Shown: in pieces, positions 4,630-16,617 of the stretch
How the letters are laid out: every line of letters starts with the position of its first letter
Position numbering within the stretch: the stretch's first letter is position 1
Source of the DNA: an uncultured virus (IMG/VR IMGVR_UViG_3300042328_000542)
Lineage: Duplodnaviria; Heunggongvirae; Uroviricota; Caudoviricetes
Length of the DNA: 20,000 nt
IMG/VR virus record: IMGVR_UViG_3300042328_000542
Strand: one strand, 5' to 3'
Notes under the pieces: generated by a model
Database searches by the model: none
The model's input: only the letters and a program-made list of their open reading frames with translations
What the model was told of the DNA's origin: nothing
Translations under genes and position numbers: made by a program

Positions 4630-5349
4630 TCATCGCGTTGCGTCAAGCATTTTTTTATGTCGTTCTAAAAAATTCTTATGTAAGTCTTCCCAATTATCCA
4701 ATCCAGAAGTTCTGAATGTGTGATGAACTGCATCTAAATCTAAATTTTTTAGTGTATTATGAACGTGTTTAACAACATGTGGGTTAGACATTGCTGCGTT
4801 GATAAATTTAGCACCTTCAGACATAGAGGGATCTCTTAACGAATCTTTCTCTCCAATATCAGTACCATATTCTTTATGTCCACCTTGCGCTCTAAAATTA
4901 AATGACCCACCTTGATCAGTTGATACTAAATGTCCATGTTTTTTATCTAAAGATACATTACCCTCACCGTAATCTATACCTGAACCCAAAGCATCCCAAT
5001 TTTTAGTAAGAACGCCAGCAGCATAAATTTTACCTAATTGAATATGATGATCATCAGTTAAATGTGGTAAATGTTTTGATGTGATAGGTTCAAGATTATG
5101 ATTAAACTTAGATGAAACTGAAGGTTTATCTCCATTAACATTTACCAATTTTGGATTTAATGTATTAATACCCATTAGTCCATGAAGTTTAGCAGATAAT
5201 ACTTCAGTCTTAGCTTGATCAGGATTGATAGGATGTTTAATATAATGATGCGATTCATCATCTGAATCTTTGTAAACGCCACCTGGATTACTACCTCTAG
5301 AACCAGATATTTTAACTAACTCTTCAGTTAATTGTTTAAATGTTTTCAT
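4630..5349 (-). CDS. Putative virion internal protein with HipA/PI3-4-kinase-like fold
   Basis: N-terminus MKTFKQLTEE; Gly-rich GSRGSNPGGVY, YIK (ATP-binding Lys), KTEVLS (helix C Glu), NWD...GN, and STDQG (DFG-equivalent). Confidence 0.65.
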   Translation of the reverse strand: MKTFKQLTEELVKISGSRGSNPGGVYKDSDDESHHYIKHPINPDQAKTEVLSAKLHGLMGINTLNPKLVNVNGDKPSVSSKFNHNLEPITSKHLPHLTDDHHIQLGKIYAAGVLTKNWDALGSGIDYGEGNVSLDKKHGHLVSTDQGGSFNFRAQGGHKEYGTDIGEKDSLRDPSMSEGAKFINAAMSNPHVVKHVHNTLKNLDLDAVHHTFRTSGLDNWEDLHKNFLERHKKMLDATR

Positions 5350-6200
5350 GTTTTAATAATCTCCGATTTTGGAATTCTACGAACATGGTGTACAGCATAA
5401 GTTAAATCGTCATCTTTATCATAATATTTTGTAGTACCCACATGCTCATAATGTTCATCTCTAGGCATCAATGTTTCTTGTTCAGAGGGAAATACACTAT
5501 GTGAACCAATAGCTGCAATTTTTTGACCAGGTTTAGTTTCAATATGTAAAATGTGTGCATGTGGTTCACCCGCTGACCGCGCATCTACGGCAAATCTTCT
5601 AGCAACACGAGTATTATGTGTACTCGAAATATATGTTGGTGATTGGAATACAGGATTTCCTGCAGCACTTTTACCAGCCTGGACAACATTTGCAGGATTA
5701 AATCCTATACCAGAGTAGGTATGTAAAGTTGTTTTTGATGGTGTAAACGATGAATCTAAACCTTCAACATCATGTTGACCAATCGTTTTAGGTACAGGTG
5801 TACCATTCTCTTTAGCAGTCAACAATCCTTTATTTAAATCTCTACTATAATTTGTATATTTGAGTAAATGTCTCTTGGCAGAATCTGTTAATGGATGGAG
5901 TTCATGCAAATGATCCATTTTAGTGTCATGAGTTTCTCCATTAAGATGTTCGCGATTTAGATTACTATTCAAAAACTCTGATATTGGTTTATGTTCAATA
6001 TCTTCGGTTATATCGGATTTAGCATGTGAACCATGCGAGTTAAATGCATACTGGGGTTTAAGTTGATCTTTAGAAGCTATATCGGGTTTAGCTTTAGCGT
6101 GTGAACCATGTGAATTAAACGCATACTGTGGTTTAACATTACTTGTAGTGTCATTACTGGATGTAACAGGATTTTTAATAAATTGTTTAAATGTTTTCAT
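5346..6200 (-). CDS. Putative ADP-ribosyltransferase (VIP2/Alt-like fold), virion internal protein, paralog 1
   Basis: N-terminus MKTFKQFI; YTNYSRDLNKGL, LHTYSG, YISST, ILHIE, and SEQETLMPR (E-x-E). Confidence 0.8.
   Translation of the reverse strand: MKTFKQFIKNPVTSSNDTTSNVKPQYAFNSHGSHAKAKPDIASKDQLKPQYAFNSHGSHAKSDITEDIEHKPISEFLNSNLNREHLNGETHDTKMDHLHELHPLTDSAKRHLLKYTNYSRDLNKGLLTAKENGTPVPKTIGQHDVEGLDSSFTPSKTTLHTYSGIGFNPANVVQAGKSAAGNPVFQSPTYISSTHNTRVARRFAVDARSAGEPHAHILHIETKPGQKIAAIGSHSVFPSEQETLMPRDEHYEHVGTTKYYDKDDDLTYAVHHVRRIPKSEIIKT
6018..6134 (-). repeat. Duplicated KPQYAFNSHGSHAK peptide, 25-aa period
   Basis: Residues 23-36 and 48-61 of ORF 5346..6200 are identical. Confidence 0.9.
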
Positions 6201-7018
6201 TTTTTGATAACTTGTGAAGGTGAAATACGTCTAACATGATGTACTATATATGGAGTAGTGCTGTTACCCATGTGCGTAGTTGAACCTATATATTCATAGT
6301 GTTCATCTCTAGGCATAGTAGTTTCTTGTTCATGTGAATATTTACTATGATCTCCAATCACACCAATACGTTGACCAGGTTCAGTTCTAATATGTAATAT
6401 ATGATAAGCATTTTCGCCATGATATGGTTTATTATCTTCAGCAAAACTAGATGCTGTTCCTTTATTATGTGATGTTGACAAATATGTAGGAGATTTAAAC
6501 ACTGGATTTCCAGATTCACTTTTTCCAATCATATCCAACTTACTAGGATTAAATCCTATACCAGAATACGTATGCAAAGTAGTTTTTGATGGTGTAAACG
6601 ATGAATCTAAACCTTCAACATCATGTCCACGAATAGATTTTGGAGGAAGAGTATTTGTATTATGTGCTCTTATTAAAGTTGCATTTAACCCAGAACTGCC
6701 CGAACTATAAGTTTGTAGATGCGACTTTGAATGTTCATCTAATGGATGCAATTCATGCAGCTTATCCATTATAGAATCATTGTTATCGCCAAGATGTTCA
6801 TTCTCATTAGAATTCCAGAAATCGGATTTATCAGATTCTGTAATTTCAACAACATATGGATTATGTTTAGCATGAGTTCCATGTGCATTAAATGCAACTT
6901 TTGGTGATTTAGATTGCATTCGACTTGAATCTAAATCGTGTTTAGCATGAGTTCCATGTGCGTTAAATGCAACCTTTGGCGGCTGAACATCTCTGACATA
7001 TTCTTTAAATCTTTTCAT
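6197..7018 (-). CDS. Putative ADP-ribosyltransferase (VIP2/Alt-like fold), virion internal protein, paralog 2
   Basis: N-terminus MKRFKEYV; YSSGSSGLNATL, LHTYSG, YLSTS, ILHIR, HEQETTMPR; clear paralog of 5346..6200. Confidence 0.8.
   Translation of the reverse strand: MKRFKEYVRDVQPPKVAFNAHGTHAKHDLDSSRMQSKSPKVAFNAHGTHAKHNPYVVEITESDKSDFWNSNENEHLGDNNDSIMDKLHELHPLDEHSKSHLQTYSSGSSGLNATLIRAHNTNTLPPKSIRGHDVEGLDSSFTPSKTTLHTYSGIGFNPSKLDMIGKSESGNPVFKSPTYLSTSHNKGTASSFAEDNKPYHGENAYHILHIRTEPGQRIGVIGDHSKYSHEQETTMPRDEHYEYIGSTTHMGNSTTPYIVHHVRRISPSQVIKK
6863..6979 (-). repeat. Duplicated PKVAFNAHGTHAKH peptide, 25-aa period
   Basis: Residues 14-27 and 39-52 of ORF 6197..7018 are identical. Confidence 0.9.
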
Positions 7019-7030
7019 TTATAATGTTCC

Positions 7031-7678
7031 TTATAATTGATCGAACGCACGTTTACGTTCAATTAAATCTTTGATATACGGTCTGATTGGTTTAACGAAA
7101 AATTGGGGTTTATCATTTTCTACAGCTATAATAATCACAACTTGGTGGACTTTAATTCCAGTTATTTCCATATAAGCTAAAGCGTAAAAACATGTTTGTA
7201 GAAAATAATCATGAATATCATCTTCACGTTTTAATCTACGGGAATTCTTAAAATCTATAACAGATAACACACTATCAAACTCAGCAACACAATCAACACT
7301 ACCAGCAACTTGTAACTTTTCACTGTATAAACATGCTTCCTGAGCATTGATGTTATTAATCCTATTGAGAATCGGTCTCAAGGAATAAAACATCTCAAGT
7401 GCATCTGGCATTTTAACAGATAACGATTTATTATTCAGATAATCTTCACACATTTTATGTAAATTAGTTCCTCGTCCAGCAGAATTAGCAGTAATTTTAT
7501 CGGCTGCATCATGGCCAATACGATCTCGCCATTCTTTTAGATAAGTTTTATCTGATGTAGAACCCAAGACAGTGGTTATAGATGGAAAGTGTTGATGACC
7601 TATTTGGTAATAACGCTTTCCATCAATATTCACTCTTGGATAAGTTACAAGTTCAACGGGTACATGATTAAAATTCAT
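7031..7678 (-). CDS. PD-(D/E)XK exonuclease (T4-like cyanophage-type, Cas4-like fold)
   Basis: FPSITTVL, WRDRIG, RGTNLH, AGSVDCVAE, VIDFKNS and YFLQ...Y motifs; usual neighbour of phoH in T4-like phages. Confidence 0.9.
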   Translation of the reverse strand: MNFNHVPVELVTYPRVNIDGKRYYQIGHQHFPSITTVLGSTSDKTYLKEWRDRIGHDAADKITANSAGRGTNLHKMCEDYLNNKSLSVKMPDALEMFYSLRPILNRINNINAQEACLYSEKLQVAGSVDCVAEFDSVLSVIDFKNSRRLKREDDIHDYFLQTCFYALAYMEITGIKVHQVVIIIAVENDKPQFFVKPIRPYIKDLIERKRAFDQL

Positions 7679-7680
7679 TT

Positions 7681-8562
7681 TTATCTATAGTATGCATTTT
7701 GCTGTTTGTCTCTAGAACGCTTTCTTAATTCTGCATAACGTTTAGATACACTATTACTGAATCCATAATCACTAACAACTGGATATTCTTTTCCTGTTAC
7801 AGGATGATGGAAAATTCCCATATTTCTAGGTGAAATATCACCTGGATGATTTCCGGTATTTAACATCCAACTATGATAATTATCAACCCATGGATGCGAC
7901 ATAATATGTTCGTGGTGATCATCGTCTAGAGTTTTACCTGAATATGTCTGACCATGTGCATCAGAATATTCTTTATTCAGTGCATGATACATGTCATCAA
8001 ACGAAATACCTTTAGGATGAGTCTCAGTAACTGTTAAACGTTTAAAATCGCCTTTTTTCATAGGCGTAATTTTATGCATTTCTAACCAGTGATTATCTTT
8101 ATGTGATGAATAAACTGGAGCTAATACACCATGATGTTGTGTTGTATATGCACCTGGAGATTCTTCTTTCAGTACAGAATGCTCATTATTATAACCATCA
8201 GATTCAACTTCATTTTGATGTTCACCCAATAAAGCTTCCCCTGATGTGCGGTGTTTATCTAACGTACCAGGAAATGCAGTTTTGACTGCAGTGGGTACTG
8301 CAGTTTGACGACCATCTACTGTAACAGGTTTATGTTCACTAGGAAATAATACAGCTCTAGAACTACCTTTTTTAGGTTTACCTTCTTGGATACCAGTATC
8401 AACACCACGTTTAGCAAGATCACGTATTTTTTTAGAAACCGTATTTAATTTACTAGGCGAATGCGGTTGATTATCTAAAATATCTTGAATTTCACTATGA
8501 ACAGCTTCTATTAACTGTTCGGGTATATTATGTTCTAATAAGAACGATTTAAAAGTTTTCAT
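7681..8562 (-). CDS. Putative protein-kinase-fold virion internal protein
   Basis: Start moved to MKTFKSFLLE (ATG 8562, AGGA SD). Kinase-like motifs KKGSSRAVL, AVK, QNEVE, WLEMH, HPGDISPRNMG and VVSDYGF. Confidence 0.75.
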   Translation of the reverse strand: MKTFKSFLLEHNIPEQLIEAVHSEIQDILDNQPHSPSKLNTVSKKIRDLAKRGVDTGIQEGKPKKGSSRAVLFPSEHKPVTVDGRQTAVPTAVKTAFPGTLDKHRTSGEALLGEHQNEVESDGYNNEHSVLKEESPGAYTTQHHGVLAPVYSSHKDNHWLEMHKITPMKKGDFKRLTVTETHPKGISFDDMYHALNKEYSDAHGQTYSGKTLDDDHHEHIMSHPWVDNYHSWMLNTGNHPGDISPRNMGIFHHPVTGKEYPVVSDYGFSNSVSKRYAELRKRSRDKQQNAYYR

Positions 8563-8584
8563 AAGTTTTTCCTGTAAATTATAG

Positions 8585-8592
8585 TATTTATT
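8585..8592 (-). promoter_or_regulatory. Putative T4-type late promoter
   Basis: AATAAATA on the minus strand (T4 consensus TATAAATA), about 23 nt upstream of the 8562 start. AT-rich background limits confidence. Confidence 0.5.
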
Positions 8593-9301
8593 ATAATCCA
8601 AGTTTCTCTTTTGCAATAATATAATTTTTAACTAAACCAGATCGCACTATATCATCTGGTGTAAATTCAACCATAGCAAATTCATTTAAATGTGTTAATA
8701 TTTGCATAAAATCTTGAATACCACTTGTTTCTTTTTTAGTATTGAAATCACACTGTTTAATATCACCGGCAAATATAATTTTTGAACTATCGTGTAATCT
8801 AGTCAGAATCGTATCTAATTCTTGGAAATTCATATTTTGAATTTCATCTACAAACAATAAACAATTTTCATATGTCAAACCACGTAAAAAAGAAGTAGAC
8901 TCGAATTCAATAATAGATTTATGTTTCATTATATCATAAGCATCATCTCTGCAATATAAATCATTAACAATTGCTCTGTATGGAGCTTCATAAACTTCAA
9001 CTTTTTCTTTATCGGTTCCGGGTAAAAAGCCGAGATCTCTTGATGCAACTGCACTACGAATAATAACAATTTTACTAAAAGTTCCATTTTCCATCATATC
9101 TCGTAGTCCAAGATACAATCCTACCATAGATTTACCAACACCTGCGCTTCCATACAATACAAGATTCTTTCCACTTTCATACAATTCAAAAACACGTTCT
9201 TGATTATACGTGATAGGTTGTATTTTTGTCAAGTCAAAATTTAATCCAGTTGCTCTTGGAGATTTTTGAGTTTTTTTATTTCTTTTGTTAGGTTTTAACA
9301 T
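8591..9301 (-). CDS. phoH: PhoH-family ATPase
   Basis: Walker A GSAGVGKS, RDLGFLPG, FLRGLT, VDEIQN, GDIKQCD, DIVRSGLVK. Confidence 0.96.
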   Translation of the reverse strand: MLKPNKRNKKTQKSPRATGLNFDLTKIQPITYNQERVFELYESGKNLVLYGSAGVGKSMVGLYLGLRDMMENGTFSKIVIIRSAVASRDLGFLPGTDKEKVEVYEAPYRAIVNDLYCRDDAYDIMKHKSIIEFESTSFLRGLTYENCLLFVDEIQNMNFQELDTILTRLHDSSKIIFAGDIKQCDFNTKKETSGIQDFMQILTHLNEFAMVEFTPDDIVRSGLVKNYIIAKEKLGL

Positions 9302-9321
9302 AAGATCCTTTTATGGCTAGT

Positions 9322-9366
9322 AAAAAAGAAAAACCCGCTAACCATATTTTTATGGAATCGCGGGTT
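9322..9366 (-). terminator. Terminator-like hairpin directly upstream of phoH
   Basis: Minus strand AACCCGC-GATT-CCATA-AAAA-TATGG-TTA-GCGGGTT followed by TTTCTTTTTT. Confidence 0.7.
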
Positions 9367-9389
9367 CTGGTTATATTATAATATAAAAG

Positions 9390-9653
9390 TTAAAATTCAC
9401 GTGGTATAGAAAATTTTCGATCTGATAATGTATTTCCTGGTATACTATCTTTCATTCTACCAATAACACCTTTCATAAAATCGGTAGGGGGTTTTTTCAC
9501 TGATAGTCTAACGGAATCTCCTATATTTGGAGCATTACCAAAATATCGTTCAATGTGTGGATTAGCAATCAAATATTGTTCATAATCAGAAATCTTCAAC
9601 ATCACATCAAAGATTTCATCTGTATCTTTATTTCTAAGAGAATAAATAGGCAT
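9390..9653 (-). CDS. FmdB-like small protein conserved in T4-like phages (Cys-less variant)
   Basis: MPIYSLRNKDTDEIFD...YLIANPHI...IGDSVRL...KPPTDF pattern; typical position upstream of phoH. Confidence 0.7.
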   Translation of the reverse strand: MPIYSLRNKDTDEIFDVMLKISDYEQYLIANPHIERYFGNAPNIGDSVRLSVKKPPTDFMKGVIGRMKDSIPGNTLSDRKFSIPREF

Positions 9654-9683
9654 AGTATTAAATGTGTTAGTATATTAAAATAT

Positions 9684-10028
9684 TTATTCTGTAATATTAG
9701 CTGCTGTATATTCTTTATACGCGGTTGTACGCTTATCAACATAACCTGTTGGCAATCTTGGTAGATGTGCTGGATACTGATCTAAATCTTTATATAGATC
9801 AGTTGTATTAGTTTGTGAACCAGGAATACCTAAATGTTCCATTACAGTTTTGGGTTCACTAGGTAAAAATTGAACTTTAAATGAATCAAACGGCTCATTA
9901 ACTGAAAATACTTCACCAGTTGAAAGTGTGACCACGGTTGTAGTGCCACCAAATCCAGTAGCTAATTTTGCAACATATTTTGTATTAATTAAAAAATTAC
10001 CATCATTAGTATTTACTTGTAAAAACAT
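9684..10028 (-). CDS. Hypothetical protein with FlbD/SwrD-like N-terminal domain
   Basis: MFLQVNTNDGNFLINTKYVAKL...TVVTLSTGEVFSVNEPFD resembles the FlbD pattern (LN...I...T.I.L..G....V.E). Start at 10028 after a GGTG SD. Confidence 0.55.
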   Translation of the reverse strand: MFLQVNTNDGNFLINTKYVAKLATGFGGTTTVVTLSTGEVFSVNEPFDSFKVQFLPSEPKTVMEHLGIPGSQTNTTDLYKDLDQYPAHLPRLPTGYVDKRTTAYKEYTAANITE

Positions 10029-10052
10029 TATAATCACCAAAAATTAAAATTG

Positions 10053-10111
10053 TATAAATATGCTATTATAACAAAAAAGTTCTTGACAAAATCAAAAAAG
10101 TGTGTTAACAT
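10053..10111. promoter_or_regulatory. Divergent promoter cluster
   Basis: Rightward: TTGACA (10083-10088), 17 nt, TAACAT (10106-10111) with an extended -10 TG, plus a perfect late consensus TATAAATA (10053-10060). Leftward: TGT-TATAAT extended -10 (10073-10065). Confidence 0.75.
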
Positions 10112-10117
10112 AGCAAA

Positions 10118-10630
10118 AATTAGAGAATAGATATCTCTTAATAATTACTTAGTATGTAATTTTACTGATAGAAAATAAAGGTTGGTAGGCCGATTGTAAT
10201 TCTACTAGACACGTTGCCGCTAAGGATAACCGCTGTTTAATTCTCTGTTCTATCCAGAGACCTCCACTAGCTGCAATGAGCTTAAACGCCATCTTGTGTA
10301 TATCACTTGAGGAATATTGTTTTAAGTATAAAGGCAGTCCATAAAAAGACCTTGACGAAATCCAAGGGATTATTGCTGGTTGTATATGGTTTGATTATAG
10401 TAATATAATCCGGTTTAATTGTTATACAGAAGATCCTGTATAGAGAATTGAATCAAAAATAGAAAGATTCTGATATATTGAAGCACTGAAGGCGGAGCTT
10501 CATTAAAAGTTTGAGAGGTACAGGTAAGTCAAAGCCTAATATCAGATTTAAATCTTTCAAGTAAATCCTCCCTTCATCAAAATTCTACTTTGGTGGTTGT
10601 CCGATTTTTCGGATGGCCTTCATCGCTTAA
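10118..10630 (+). ncRNA. Putative long structured non-coding RNA, family unassigned
   Basis: No ORF of 60 aa or more between 10040 and 10826; directly downstream of a strong promoter. Dense helices include TCTCTG/CAGAGA, CCTTG/CAAGG, GATTATA-GTAA-TATAATC, TATACAG/CTGTATA, GAAAGAT-TCTGATAT/ATATCAGA-ATCTTTC enclosing TGAAGC/GCTTCA, and GGTTGTCCGA/TCGGATGGCC. Boundaries approximate. Confidence 0.55.
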
Positions 10631-10666
10631 AGAAACGTTAAAATAAAATCTAAATAAAAATAAACG

Positions 10667-10801
10667 CTTTGAGCGAAGCGAAAAGAACGAACGAAGTGAG
10701 TTTAAATTAAGTGAAAATTAGATTCAAATTTGATTAATGTTAATATTATATAACACTAAATTAGTTTTCTACGCTTCGCTCCGAAAACCTGCCTTCGGCA
10801 G
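10667..10801. other. Opposed GAA-triloop/tandem-GA DNA hairpins around an AT-rich core, candidate replication origin
   Basis: Plus: CTTT-GA-GC-GAA-GC-GA-AAAG and AAC-GA-AC-GAA-GT-GA-GTT. Minus: CTGCC-GAA-GGCAG and GTTTTC-GGA-GC-GAA-GC-GTA-GAAAAC. The intervening 10703-10763 has 8 G/C in 61 nt. Confidence 0.5.
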
Positions 10802-10825
10802 TACATTAATTATAGGATTTATATT

Positions 10826-11122
10826 ATGACGAAAAAAATTTACTCTAAAAAAACATTTGATGAATTAGCTAAAGAAATTACTAATTCTAAATCTACATTG
10901 GTACCAAAAGATGTTCTTCTAGCAGATCTCTATAGAAGTTATAAAAGTATTACTTTAGAATATGATAATGATCAATTTAAATATAATAAGAAATCTACTA
11001 ACAGTAAAAAGAATTCATCTATCACTAAAGTTAAATCTAATAAAAGTTCTACCAACAGTAAAAAGAAATTTACAAATAAAAAATCTACAAAGAGTATTAA
11101 ACAAAACTCTAATAGACTTTAA
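10826..11122 (+). CDS. Small basic Lys/Ser/Asn-rich hypothetical protein
   Basis: 98-aa ORF with AGGA SD; C-terminal KKSTNSKK-type repeats. Confidence 0.55.
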   Translation: MTKKIYSKKTFDELAKEITNSKSTLVPKDVLLADLYRSYKSITLEYDNDQFKYNKKSTNSKKNSSITKVKSNKSSTNSKKKFTNKKSTKSIKQNSNRL

Positions 11123-11126
11123 TGTA

Positions 11127-11174
11127 ATTTTACTTTCACTCGCTTTGCTCGTTCAGTAAAATCTGCTTCGCAGA
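11127..11174 (-). other. Second minus-strand triloop/tandem-GA hairpin pair
   Basis: Minus strand TCTGC-GAA-GCAGA followed by ATTTTACT-GA-AC-GA-GC-AAA-GC-GA-GT-GA-A-AGTAAAAT. Confidence 0.55.
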
Positions 11175-11189
11175 ATTCTTATTTAGTGC

Positions 11190-11218
11190 TTGACAAAACT
11201 GCATCTTTAATGTATAAT
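11190..11218 (+). promoter_or_regulatory. Consensus sigma70 (early) promoter
   Basis: TTGACA (11190-11195), 17 nt, TATAAT (11213-11218). Confidence 0.88.
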
Positions 11219-11267
11219 AATTTTACTAGTCTAAATAAAAATGTTACTAACATTATGGAATTATATT

Positions 11268-11426
11268 ATGGACAAACAAAAAGTAGAAAAAGCTGTTGAA
11301 ACTCTTAAATCTTACAATAAATGGCGTAGAGGATTGATTAAAGAATCGCCTAATGCATCATTAATAGGTGAGTCTATTGATTTTTTAACAGATTTAATTA
11401 CAACTGAATTATTAACTAAAAACTAA
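11268..11426 (+). CDS. Small phage hypothetical protein
   Basis: MDKQKVEKAVETLKSYNKWRRG...IGESID. Start at the second Met, after a GGA, preferred over 11241. Confidence 0.65.
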   Translation: MDKQKVEKAVETLKSYNKWRRGLIKESPNASLIGESIDFLTDLITTELLTKN

Positions 11427-11430
11427 TTTT

Positions 11431-11856
11431 ATGATAAAAAATATCTATGAAATATTGACCGAGATTGAAGCTGCTGAAACTCGTCAACAAAAGAAAACAG
11501 TGTTACAAAATAACAACTTACATCACTTTAAAGAAGTGTTAAAGTATACATTTAATCCTAGTATTGAATTTTATGTAGATAAAGAGTTTCCTGTAGATTA
11601 TATTAAACCTGATACTTTACCTGGAATTCGTTTTGCGGGTATTGAAAGTGAAATTCGTCGAGCATATTTGTTTATTAAAGGTAATGAGACTGCAGATACT
11701 TTAACTCAGGAAAAACGTAAAATTTTATTATTGCAGTTATTAGAATCATTTGAGCCACAAGAGGCTATTGTATGGTTTAATATGATGCGAAAAGATTTAA
11801 AAACTAAGGGTTTAACAGAAGCACTTGTTCGAGAAGTGTATCCGGAATTATTTTAA
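11431..11856 (+). CDS. Conserved T4-like phage hypothetical protein (DUF6433-like)
   Basis: IYEIL...KK.VL...LKYTFNPSIEF...KR..L..QLLES..PQEA...K.KGLT..LV.E.YP pattern, recalled from environmental T4-like phages. Confidence 0.7.
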   Translation: MIKNIYEILTEIEAAETRQQKKTVLQNNNLHHFKEVLKYTFNPSIEFYVDKEFPVDYIKPDTLPGIRFAGIESEIRRAYLFIKGNETADTLTQEKRKILLLQLLESFEPQEAIVWFNMMRKDLKTKGLTEALVREVYPELF

Positions 11857-11861
11857 ATACT

Positions 11862-12026
11862 ATGAAAAACATTATTAAATATTATCCTGAAGAATTTGAA
11901 GAATATTCTCCAACTAAAGTAAAAATCACTAAAAAATCTAATCGAGTATCGTTTAGAGAATTTGATGATATGAAATCAACGTCTAGCCAAAAAAAGAAAC
12001 CATATGTCGATTTTAAGCGATCTTAA
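11862..12026 (+). CDS. Hypothetical protein, 54 aa (not in ORF track)
   Basis: MKNIIKYYPEEFEEYSPTKVKITKKSNRVSFREFDDMKSTSSQKKKPYVDFKRS; begins 5 nt after the previous stop. Confidence 0.55.
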   Translation: MKNIIKYYPEEFEEYSPTKVKITKKSNRVSFREFDDMKSTSSQKKKPYVDFKRS

Positions 12027-15768: not shown

Positions 15769-16617
15769 ATGGCTATATTATTAGATTTGAATCAGATTGT
15801 AATCAGTGGATTACAATCTCAAGTTAGAGCTTGTAGGATTAATGTTTTAGATAAAGATTTGTGTAGACATCTAGTGTTGAATTCTATACGAGCAGTTGTG
15901 CATAAATTTAAAGCTGAATACGGTGAAGTAATTGTTTGCTGTGATTCTAGAAAGTATTGGCGCAAAGAAGTTTTTCCACACTACAAAGCTAGTAGAAAAA
16001 AAGCTAGAGAAAAATCGGATTTAGATTGGAATGTGATTTTTGAAGTGTTGGATGAAGTTAGAGCTGATTTAAAAGCAGTTTTTCCGTATAAGGTTATTGA
16101 TGTTGAACGAGCGGAAGCGGATGATGTTATTGGCACATTGACACCACGATTAGCAGCACATGAATCTGTTATGATTTGTAGTTCTGATGGCGATTTTAAA
16201 CAATTACATCAATATGCTAACGTTAAGCAGTATAATCCAATGTTGGATATTTATGTAAAATGTGAAAATCCTCAACTAGAATTAAAAGAAAAGATTCTGC
16301 GTGGTGATTCAGGAGATGGAATTCCATCTATATTGTCTAATGATGATGTGTTTGTTCTAGGTATAAGGCAAAAACCTTTAACAGCAAAAAAGAAAGCTGC
16401 TTTATTATCTGAAGATTTTAATGATCCTAATATTGAGTATTATCGTAATATTCAACGCAATAAATTGTTGATTGATTTAACTCAAACTCCCAGAGAGATT
16501 AAAGATTGTATTATAGAACAATATGAAATGCCAAAAGTTGGATCAAAACAATTAATGATGAAATATTTTATTGAAAAACGATTAAATCGATTGCTTGAAT
16601 GTATTGATGAGTTTTAA
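15769..16617 (+). CDS. rnh: T4-type RNase H / 5'-3' exonuclease
   Basis: ILLDLNQI, YWRKEVFPHYKASRKK, EADDVIG, SSDGDFKQL, GDSGDGIPSI. Confidence 0.95.
   Translation: MAILLDLNQIVISGLQSQVRACRINVLDKDLCRHLVLNSIRAVVHKFKAEYGEVIVCCDSRKYWRKEVFPHYKASRKKAREKSDLDWNVIFEVLDEVRADLKAVFPYKVIDVERAEADDVIGTLTPRLAAHESVMICSSDGDFKQLHQYANVKQYNPMLDIYVKCENPQLELKEKILRGDSGDGIPSILSNDDVFVLGIRQKPLTAKKKAALLSEDFNDPNIEYYRNIQRNKLLIDLTQTPREIKDCIIEQYEMPKVGSKQLMMKYFIEKRLNRLLECIDEF

Follow-up and report, generated by a model that had tools for sequence, protein, structure and literature searches.

Among the RNAs catalogued so far, the nearest described motif to the element reported here is Polynucleobacter-1 (RF01718), which Weinberg et al. 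2010 regard as probably an RNA and mark in their table with 'y' for cis-regulatory and '?' for switch (PMC2864571). With respect to replication, the oriE, oriF and oriG origins of T4 have been described near switches of gene strand (PMC3016281), and RNA-based phage origins have a precedent in the prophages discussed in PMC7157519. In addition, GNA mini-hairpins are reported to be far more stable in the DNA form than as RNA and to be present at the priming sites of G4, St-1 and RSF1010 (PMC13037366).

The locus compared here with these systems lies in the window, by which we mean the whole analysed stretch of 20,000 nt from an uncultured Caudoviricetes virus (IMG/VR IMGVR_UViG_3300042328_000542). 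The window is a section of a T4-like phage encoding gp32, gp59, gp33, topoisomerase II and a T4-type RNase H (15769-16617, + strand, PF09293 and PF02739), together with PhoH and an exonuclease, and lake and freshwater metagenomes contain DNA near-identical to it. The initial annotation had drawn attention to a gap poor in ORFs, and indeed no ORF of at least 50 aa is present at 10041-10825 and the genes diverge around this gap. Gene strands diverge at the element in the relatives L007 and L055-L059 as well. Among near-identical strains, none of the 22 listed substitution sites (13 on main contigs) falls inside 10178-10620, where the sole change is a 1-nt deletion within an A-run, a weak hint of constraint.

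The gap is bordered by a gene (9684-10040) from a 118-aa protein family, which is divergent from the RNA in the window and in L055-L059, carries the invariant C-terminal motif LPRLPTGYVDKRT and has no match in Pfam or PHROGs. The 98-aa ORF at 10826-11122 is rich in lysine and asparagine, contains internal repeats and lacks a Pfam match. Its match in L059, in the equivalent position, is the N-terminal portion of an ORF of 124 aa (39% over 80 aa), and L055 lacks the ORF; lying between two hairpin clusters, it has the appearance of a decayed insertion. At 4630-8616 there are four minus-strand ORFs whose starts are alike (MK(T/R)FK type) and which have no PHROGs match; two of them are paralogues with internal repeats that resemble ADP-ribosyltransferase domains. 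Gene order varies among the phages: the RNase H gene is directly 5' of a 141-aa phrog_461 gene in L004 and L006, and in the window and L007 the 141-aa phrog_461 gene comes after the RNA region.

Relatives and structure of the RNA

A relative of the window, L007, was reached through PhoH (60% identity); it is syntenic and has a 23-nt word in common with the window at the equivalent position. Scanning for this word yielded 11 viral matches (one being the window's own phage and one a duplicate) and 27 metagenome matches, among which L042 is partial and four (L024, L026, L030 and L047) were set aside as chance; its 4 matches in cellular genomes were all chance. Independently, L055-L059 were found through the 118-aa neighbour protein family. 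They are fully syntenic with the window and harbor a shorter version of the RNA (~290 nt) at the equivalent position, for which the evidence is position, P1 and a complete 3' domain, since their 5'-model score of 14 bits is within the chance range. A pattern containing only the 3' domain gave 86 viral matches, and all 80 loci returned by the 3' motif, which include a few contigs from the first set, carry, upstream and in the same orientation, a 5' domain scoring 28.6-172 bits. These 80 loci represent 63 distinct sequences, every one with helix B. Under model R1, which was built without the window, the window scored 52.2 bits (E 4e-15) at 10176-10331, whereas 7 chance carriers of the search word scored only 10.6-19.1 bits, and the window was recovered as a type A member by both its 5' domain and its 3' domain. 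Overall, approximately 100 viral and metagenome loci carry the RNA, with more than 60 distinct sequences and lengths of 290-480 nt. Sequence comparison therefore strongly supports that the segment 10178-10620 (+ strand) belongs to a widespread RNA family of freshwater phages.

Neither synteny nor a model match was found for L002-L006, and blastn of the window region and one relative against 50,697 phage records returned chance matches only. Model R1 gave no credible match in RsoM2USA, RaK2, Phosso, Atu_ph07, 2.275.O, X1 or MW202484, the best Atu_ph07 score (E 0.13) lying inside a gene, and the RNA is absent from every cultured phage tested. No gene neighbour is common across the family, the flanking genes being as varied as host-metabolism genes, RNase H and nucleases. 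Some individual members depart from the usual layout. In L042 (2499-2594) the first part of the RNA stands alone, is interrupted and gives way to unrelated sequence, so that this copy is possibly truncated or chimeric, and in L133 about 140 extra nt separate the 5' and 3' domains. Permuted two-piece tmRNA genes of betaproteobacterial type are located ~1 kb from the RNA in L144 (2685-3027) and L136 (2597-2926), hinting at the hosts of those two members.

The conserved structured core of the window (10178-10620, + strand, ~443 nt) is that of a type A member of this Polynucleobacter-1-like phage RNA family. Its 5' part (10178-10206) comprises the 5' strand AAGGUU and the 5-bp helix P1, which encloses the conserved 13-nt loop GCCGAUUGUAAUU and in which 4 of 5 pairs change on both sides in relatives. 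It is followed at 10206-10263 by P2 (TAGACA/TGTTTA in the initial annotation), P3 (TCTCTG/CAGAGA) and GACCU, which may pair with the 5' strand, and at 10264-10376 by a diverged interior, in which the P4-P6 region, with an insertion and the helix CCTTG/CAAGG inside, is ambiguous in register. At 10377-10410, a conserved block that may pair with the P1 loop in a 3-bp pseudoknot precedes the GNRA hairpin GAUUAUA-GUAA-UAUAAUC, which is present at the equivalent place in 10/13 type A members. The variable insertion at 10412-10454 is a long hairpin predicted by folding only; comparative support among the relatives was found neither for it nor for CCTTG/CAAGG.

In the 3' half, a bipartite long-range helix (10462-10558), described initially as a multibranch closure, pairs U (10462-10476) with D (10539-10558). 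Its energy in the window, -15.2 kcal/mol, was reached by 0/200 shuffles, and 12 of 15 members are at no more than 10/200 shuffles, with a sequence that varies from member to member. The 3' pseudoknot core (10487-10576) consists of helix A (UGAAG/CUUCA), an A-rich linker, helix B (in the window, 4 of its 6 pairs form) and the 3-bp hairpin C (AGG/CCU). The 3' strands at 10566-10576 cross U-D, and helices A and B thus make a pseudoknot around hairpin C; the CATCAAA helix proposed earlier overlaps the 3' strand of the conserved helix A by 2 nt. Terminal hairpins occupy 10575-10620; as an alternative, 10614-10620 may form 7 bp with the 5' strand. In a type B subfamily the 3' half is unlike that of type A.

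All ten of the ten helix halves named in the initial annotation exist with full pairing, with 7 G-U pairs across 4. Folding z-scores are -2.21 (+) and -0.91 (-), or -2.47 (+) and -1.5 (-) for the core; however, 5 of 14 control folds of coding DNA reach z -2.05 to -4.53. Because these coding controls are equally low, folding energy was rejected as evidence, and the support for the fold is drawn from covariation among relatives. For the 5' domain, 20 relatives were aligned with the window left out, and RNAalifold predicted 27 pairs, 24 of them with compensatory changes. In a 31-pair model of this domain, 97.4% of cells pair and 20/31 pairs change on both sides; 0/500 shuffles were as good, and slid controls pair in 27-48%. 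The pairings of the 5' strand with RRCUU and of the P1 loop with UYG are nearly invariant, so these pseudoknot-like pairs are candidates only. In the 3' comparison (type A, 14-15 members, window included), 85.7% of cells pair and 8/16 pairs change on both sides, the two-sided count of 8 being matched by 26/500 shuffles and the covariation score by 0/500. Compensatory changes among homologues are accordingly found in both domains. The stretch almost certainly encodes a real structured RNA on the + strand, and the earlier proposal of a large phage non-coding RNA on that strand is strongly backed by homologues and covariation, with the conserved core beginning at 10178.

The kinship of this RNA with Polynucleobacter-1 emerges from the relatives. 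The window itself has no match to RF01718 at E<=10, but 6 of 10 relatives score 20-36 bits (best 36.1) and 4 of 20 further loci score 24-29 bits, and the gathering cut-off of 37 bits is reached by neither the window nor any relative. The matches extend across the full model (1-141), covering P1, P2, P3 and P4, which encloses a CACUA/GGAYG hairpin; of this 5' architecture, P1-P3 are present in the window and the P4-P6 register is ambiguous. Longer Polynucleobacter-1 rows (~280 nt) in PMC2864571 contain a 3' helix enclosing a 3-bp hairpin, similar by eye to B and C, and both RNAs come from fresh water. By contrast, the phage RNA is 290-480 nt long against a 141-nt model, differs in the P1 loop and the 3' pseudoknot, and was found here only on phage contigs, whereas the 16 examples listed in PMC2864571 are from Burkholderiales or environmental sequences. 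Since the relatives lie below the RF01718 cut-off and the window has no match, the RNA is filed as a longer variant: by sequence comparison it is a diverged, longer, phage-borne variant of Polynucleobacter-1 and not a member by score. The initial view of the element as unannotated thus stands for the window, which has no Rfam match and so no strong Rfam identity, but does not fully hold for relatives that reach 20-36 bits. Rfam and ARAGORN likewise found no tmRNA, RNase P, intron or tRNA in the window, as the initial annotation had judged by eye, and GOLLD, ROOL, OLE, raiA and HEARO also gave no Rfam match there, the best intron-clan score being 15.4 bits (E 1.3). Readings as an HDV-like 3' pseudoknot, as SRP-like or as a sigma28-promoter 5' part were considered and dropped since key bases or spacing misfit.

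Promoters, downstream hairpins and carriers

Both promoters noted initially are present on the + strand upstream of the RNA, namely the T4-late-type word TATAAATA at 10053-10060, just upstream of the point where the element was first drawn to begin, and a sigma70-type promoter with an extended -10 (TTGACA-17-TAACAT with TG, 10083-10111), from which transcription would start near 10118. An AT-rich 5' leader with two small hairpins (10118-10177) is absent from the relatives compared. A scan of 9000-12000 recovered 19 promoter sites against 16.8 ± 4.2 in shuffles, a count that is not persuasive alone. A sigma70-like site occurs in the matching position in the syntenic L055 and L059 and, by eye, in L007, and such sites precede the RNA in 11 of 25 loci (17% background). 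Of 25 relatives, 12 have TAAATA no more than 140 nt upstream (10% background), and only 10 of 62 loci do in the second set, which was fetched by the 3' motif.

Downstream, the RNA leads into an A-rich tract without a sense-strand terminator (10621-10670, + strand, 52% A, 22% GC) and then into two DNA-type tandem-GA mini-hairpins with GAA triloops (10667-10702, + strand), the first of which doubles as a terminator on the - strand (10680-10665). Next are a 15% GC tract that is a candidate unwinding element (10706-10765), GAA-loop mini-hairpins on the opposite strand (10770-10801) and, past the 98-aa ORF, a second opposite-strand mini-hairpin cluster (11125-11175). In L007, mirrored twin-hairpin units flank AT-rich repeats. 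Elsewhere in the family, too, the RNA often leads into an A-rich tract and into hairpins that combine tandem GA pairs with a purine triloop. Across the first set, the strict mini-hairpin form right after the RNA is found in sense orientation in 13/22 loci and in antisense in 0/22. In the second set, the hairpin core occurs in 17/60 loci in sense against 1/60 in antisense, equivalent to 17 matches in 24,000 nt versus 3 in 153,611 nt, with the qualification that the motif was defined after the first loci had been seen and that at least 3 of the 17 second-set matches come from first-set contigs. As 43/60 loci lack the strict core, the module is enriched but not obligatory, and in L093 and L114 the RNA runs straight into an apparent convergent gene. 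Terminator-like readings were obtained in sense in 1/22 loci and in antisense in 10/22, and a further promoter word is frequently found after the hairpins, ahead of the next gene. Weak matches (E>=0.5 among those listed) were all that a plasmid blastn search with the hairpin region returned; they lie upstream of the Lactococcus repB gene, do not contain the core motif and were not counted.

The RNA is carried by phages of two size classes. Completeness is 90% or more for 9 of the records, of which 4 come from jumbo phages (320-372 kb) encoding gp43 and 5 from small phages (33-37 kb) that lack it. One copy is present in 21 of 23 records and two in the remaining 2, both jumbo records with two diverged copies each (G010, 131062-131228 and 272525-272688; G016, 24860-25036 and 162607-162780). 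The small phages (G003, G006, G007, G021, G023 and G024, including loci L062-L063, L071-L073 and L177-L182) are 21-37 kb with their own virion genes, and three of the six have direct terminal repeats. PHROGs and Pfam scans of their ORFs (44 of G003; 24/39 of G007; 22/26 of G006; 66/102 of G021, G023 and G024 combined) revealed no polymerase, primase, helicase or initiator, many ORFs being unannotated, and the sole sigma-factor match, a weak one (E 0.0016), fell on a small-terminase ORF. Although only 7-21% of their DNA is intergenic, [CA]TAAATA is intergenic in 9/15, 10/12, 7/8, 7/11, 4/7 and 9/14 cases; permuted control words gave lower counts, yet these too were partly intergenic. A -35-like TTG precedes 1 of 32 TAAATA sites in the small phages, T4 late promoters being expected to lack a -35. 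MW202484, related through its portal (45%) and carrying Cro, ERF, SSB and RusA genes and a lambdoid module, is without the RNA, and TAAATA precedes 1 of its 61 ORFs. The small phages are accordingly candidate satellites of T4-like jumbo phages, as judged from gene content and promoter words.

Some genes recur near the RNA. In the small phages these are a GNAT-like acetyltransferase and a protein of 135-156 aa (L016:1181-1750 and L016:3113-3580), and Dps/ferritin and GroES genes recur as well. A 190-aa neighbour in the small phages was considered as a sigma factor and rejected, being GNAT-like.

Possible functions of the element

The reading we favour, with a probability of roughly 0.43, is that the RNA acts in cis as an origin pre-primer, perhaps common to the helper-dependent small phages. 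We prefer it because the DNA-type hairpins are strand-specific, a terminator is missing, the element sits at a strand switch and small phages that lack replication genes have kept it; moreover, a helper-dependent phage would need no copy of its own of a trans-acting RNA, which counts for action in cis. Transcription and all later steps of the mechanism are inferred. Host RNA polymerase would start at the sigma70 or late-type promoter and read through, no terminator intervening. The folded body would be bound by a replication protein or would keep the 3' part of the RNA on its template across the A-rich tract, and the 3' end, trimmed possibly by the phage RNase H, would then prime the leading strand. 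The displaced sense strand would fold the GA mini-hairpins, which would resist SSB and mark the place for helicase or primase loading, and the mirror hairpins on the opposite strand would serve the other fork. In the small 33-37 kb phages, the identical module would work with the replisome and late sigma factor of the T4-like helper. That RNA and DNA mini-hairpins together form an origin common to T4-like jumbo phages and undescribed 33-37 kb helper-dependent phages borrowing the replisome and late sigma is the more demanding proposal, and we consider it rather unlikely as a whole.

The initial suggestion of an R-loop primer gains circumstantial support from the strand-specific mini-hairpins, the scarcity of terminators and the small phages without replication genes, but other observations fit it poorly, namely the many loci without a strict hairpin core, those that abut a convergent gene, and the account of T4 origin R-loops in PMC3016281, in which no specific sequence is needed. 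The many invariant unpaired bases better suit a folded RNP or a catalyst and also count against an R-loop primer. The pre-primer reading is further weakened because two jumbo records carry two copies, because the many unannotated ORFs of the small phages could hide an initiator, and because the hairpins read as antisense terminators in 10/22 loci; a GC-skew switch at the element was not seen in G002 or G003.

A stable RNA of GOLLD/ROOL type, produced in the course of infection and acting in trans, away from its gene, as an RNP scaffold, decoy or ribozyme, is nearly as likely as the origin pre-primer, and both are held tentatively. On this account, the downstream hairpins would guard the 3' end or halt antisense transcription, consistent with their terminator-like antisense reading in 10/22 loci. 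The elaborate fold, which covaries and in both domains keeps loop and junction bases invariant, the lack of a conserved gene neighbour, the late-type promoter word upstream in 12/25 loci, the double copies in 2/23 records and the members without a hairpin module all agree with it, and GOLLD and ROOL offer a precedent as phage-borne RNAs described as of unknown function (10.1101/2024.12.08.627333). It leaves unexplained, however, why DNA-type GA/GA pairs and purine triloops lie on the sense strand, why a sense-strand terminator is almost absent and why the RNA is kept in small, apparently helper-dependent phages. The table entry for Polynucleobacter-1 ('y' for cis-regulatory, '?' for switch; PMC2864571) and a downstream gene that is often on the same strand would instead fit a 5' leader or riboswitch, which we regard as improbable given that the downstream genes are unrelated, that a new promoter word often precedes the next gene, that in some members the downstream gene is convergent and that no expression platform was seen.

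The scattered genomic contexts, together with HNH or GIY-YIG genes near 4 loci (79 neighbours scanned) and also near G003 and G006, bring to mind a mobile or selfish RNA element, or its relic, moved by homing nucleases; such an origin is about as improbable as a leader, since genes are uninterrupted, no partner ORF is constant, HEARO and introns score below the Rfam cut-offs and the element is syntenic among the window's relatives. A role as packaging or virion-assembly RNA, or as a DNA recognition site of helper and small phages, draws on the late-type promoter words and on carriers that may co-infect, and it too is very unlikely: the portals and terminases of the carriers are unrelated, and GNRA loops and G-U pairs indicate that the body is RNA and not DNA.

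Whichever function applies, a 141-nt motif with 16 examples is extended to a two-domain phage RNA of 290-480 nt with a testable structure. To our knowledge, most origins in T4-like jumbo phages have yet to be mapped, and a conserved module of RNA plus hairpins would therefore be a searchable marker for them. Small complete phages with T4-late-type words and without replication genes hint at what may be a new kind of helper-parasite relationship. Should the RNA act in trans instead, it would remain a large, structured RNA of phages, new and amenable to cryo-EM and activity screens. A literature search, mostly outside subscription journals, found neither the family nor such satellites, and the candidates of Fremin et al. 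2023 (PMC10690425) may include parts of it; within the literature searched, no publication was found that reports the distribution in phages, the complete length, the 3' pseudoknot, the hairpin module or the link to small phages.

Comparison with known phage RNAs and origins

GOLLD and ROOL are likewise described as large, pseudoknotted phage RNAs (10.1101/2024.12.08.627333). The window RNA differs from them in being smaller and in having no Rfam match, and the window is without tRNA. The ColE1 RNA II pre-primer is arranged similarly, with a promoter leading into a folded RNA of several hundred nt, followed by an A-run and by a core of GA-triloop type in the sense of the RNA. In ColE1 the GA core word occurs once, on the RNA II strand, and fails the strict hairpin test; it lies ~140 nt past the A-run that we take to be the origin and is presumably the primosome assembly signal (pas). 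On the other hand, there is no sequence likeness to RNA II, neither RNA II nor RNA I gave Rfam homology in the window, no equivalent of RNA I or Rop was found, no conserved G-tract was seen, and the phages here have their own replisome.

Cluster A mycobacteriophages without repA, as described in PMC7157519, require a transcribed non-coding region for replication and have RNA-based prophage origins. They are temperate plasmid prophages in which this region is beside parABS (PMC7157519), whereas no parABS cassette was recognised here. The T4 origins oriF and oriG differ in being ~100 bp long, in using MotA middle promoters and in needing no specific RNA sequence or fold, according to PMC3016281. 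They resemble the present locus in combining a promoter and an AT-rich tract near a strand switch, and the phage of the window likewise has gp32, gp59 and RNase H.
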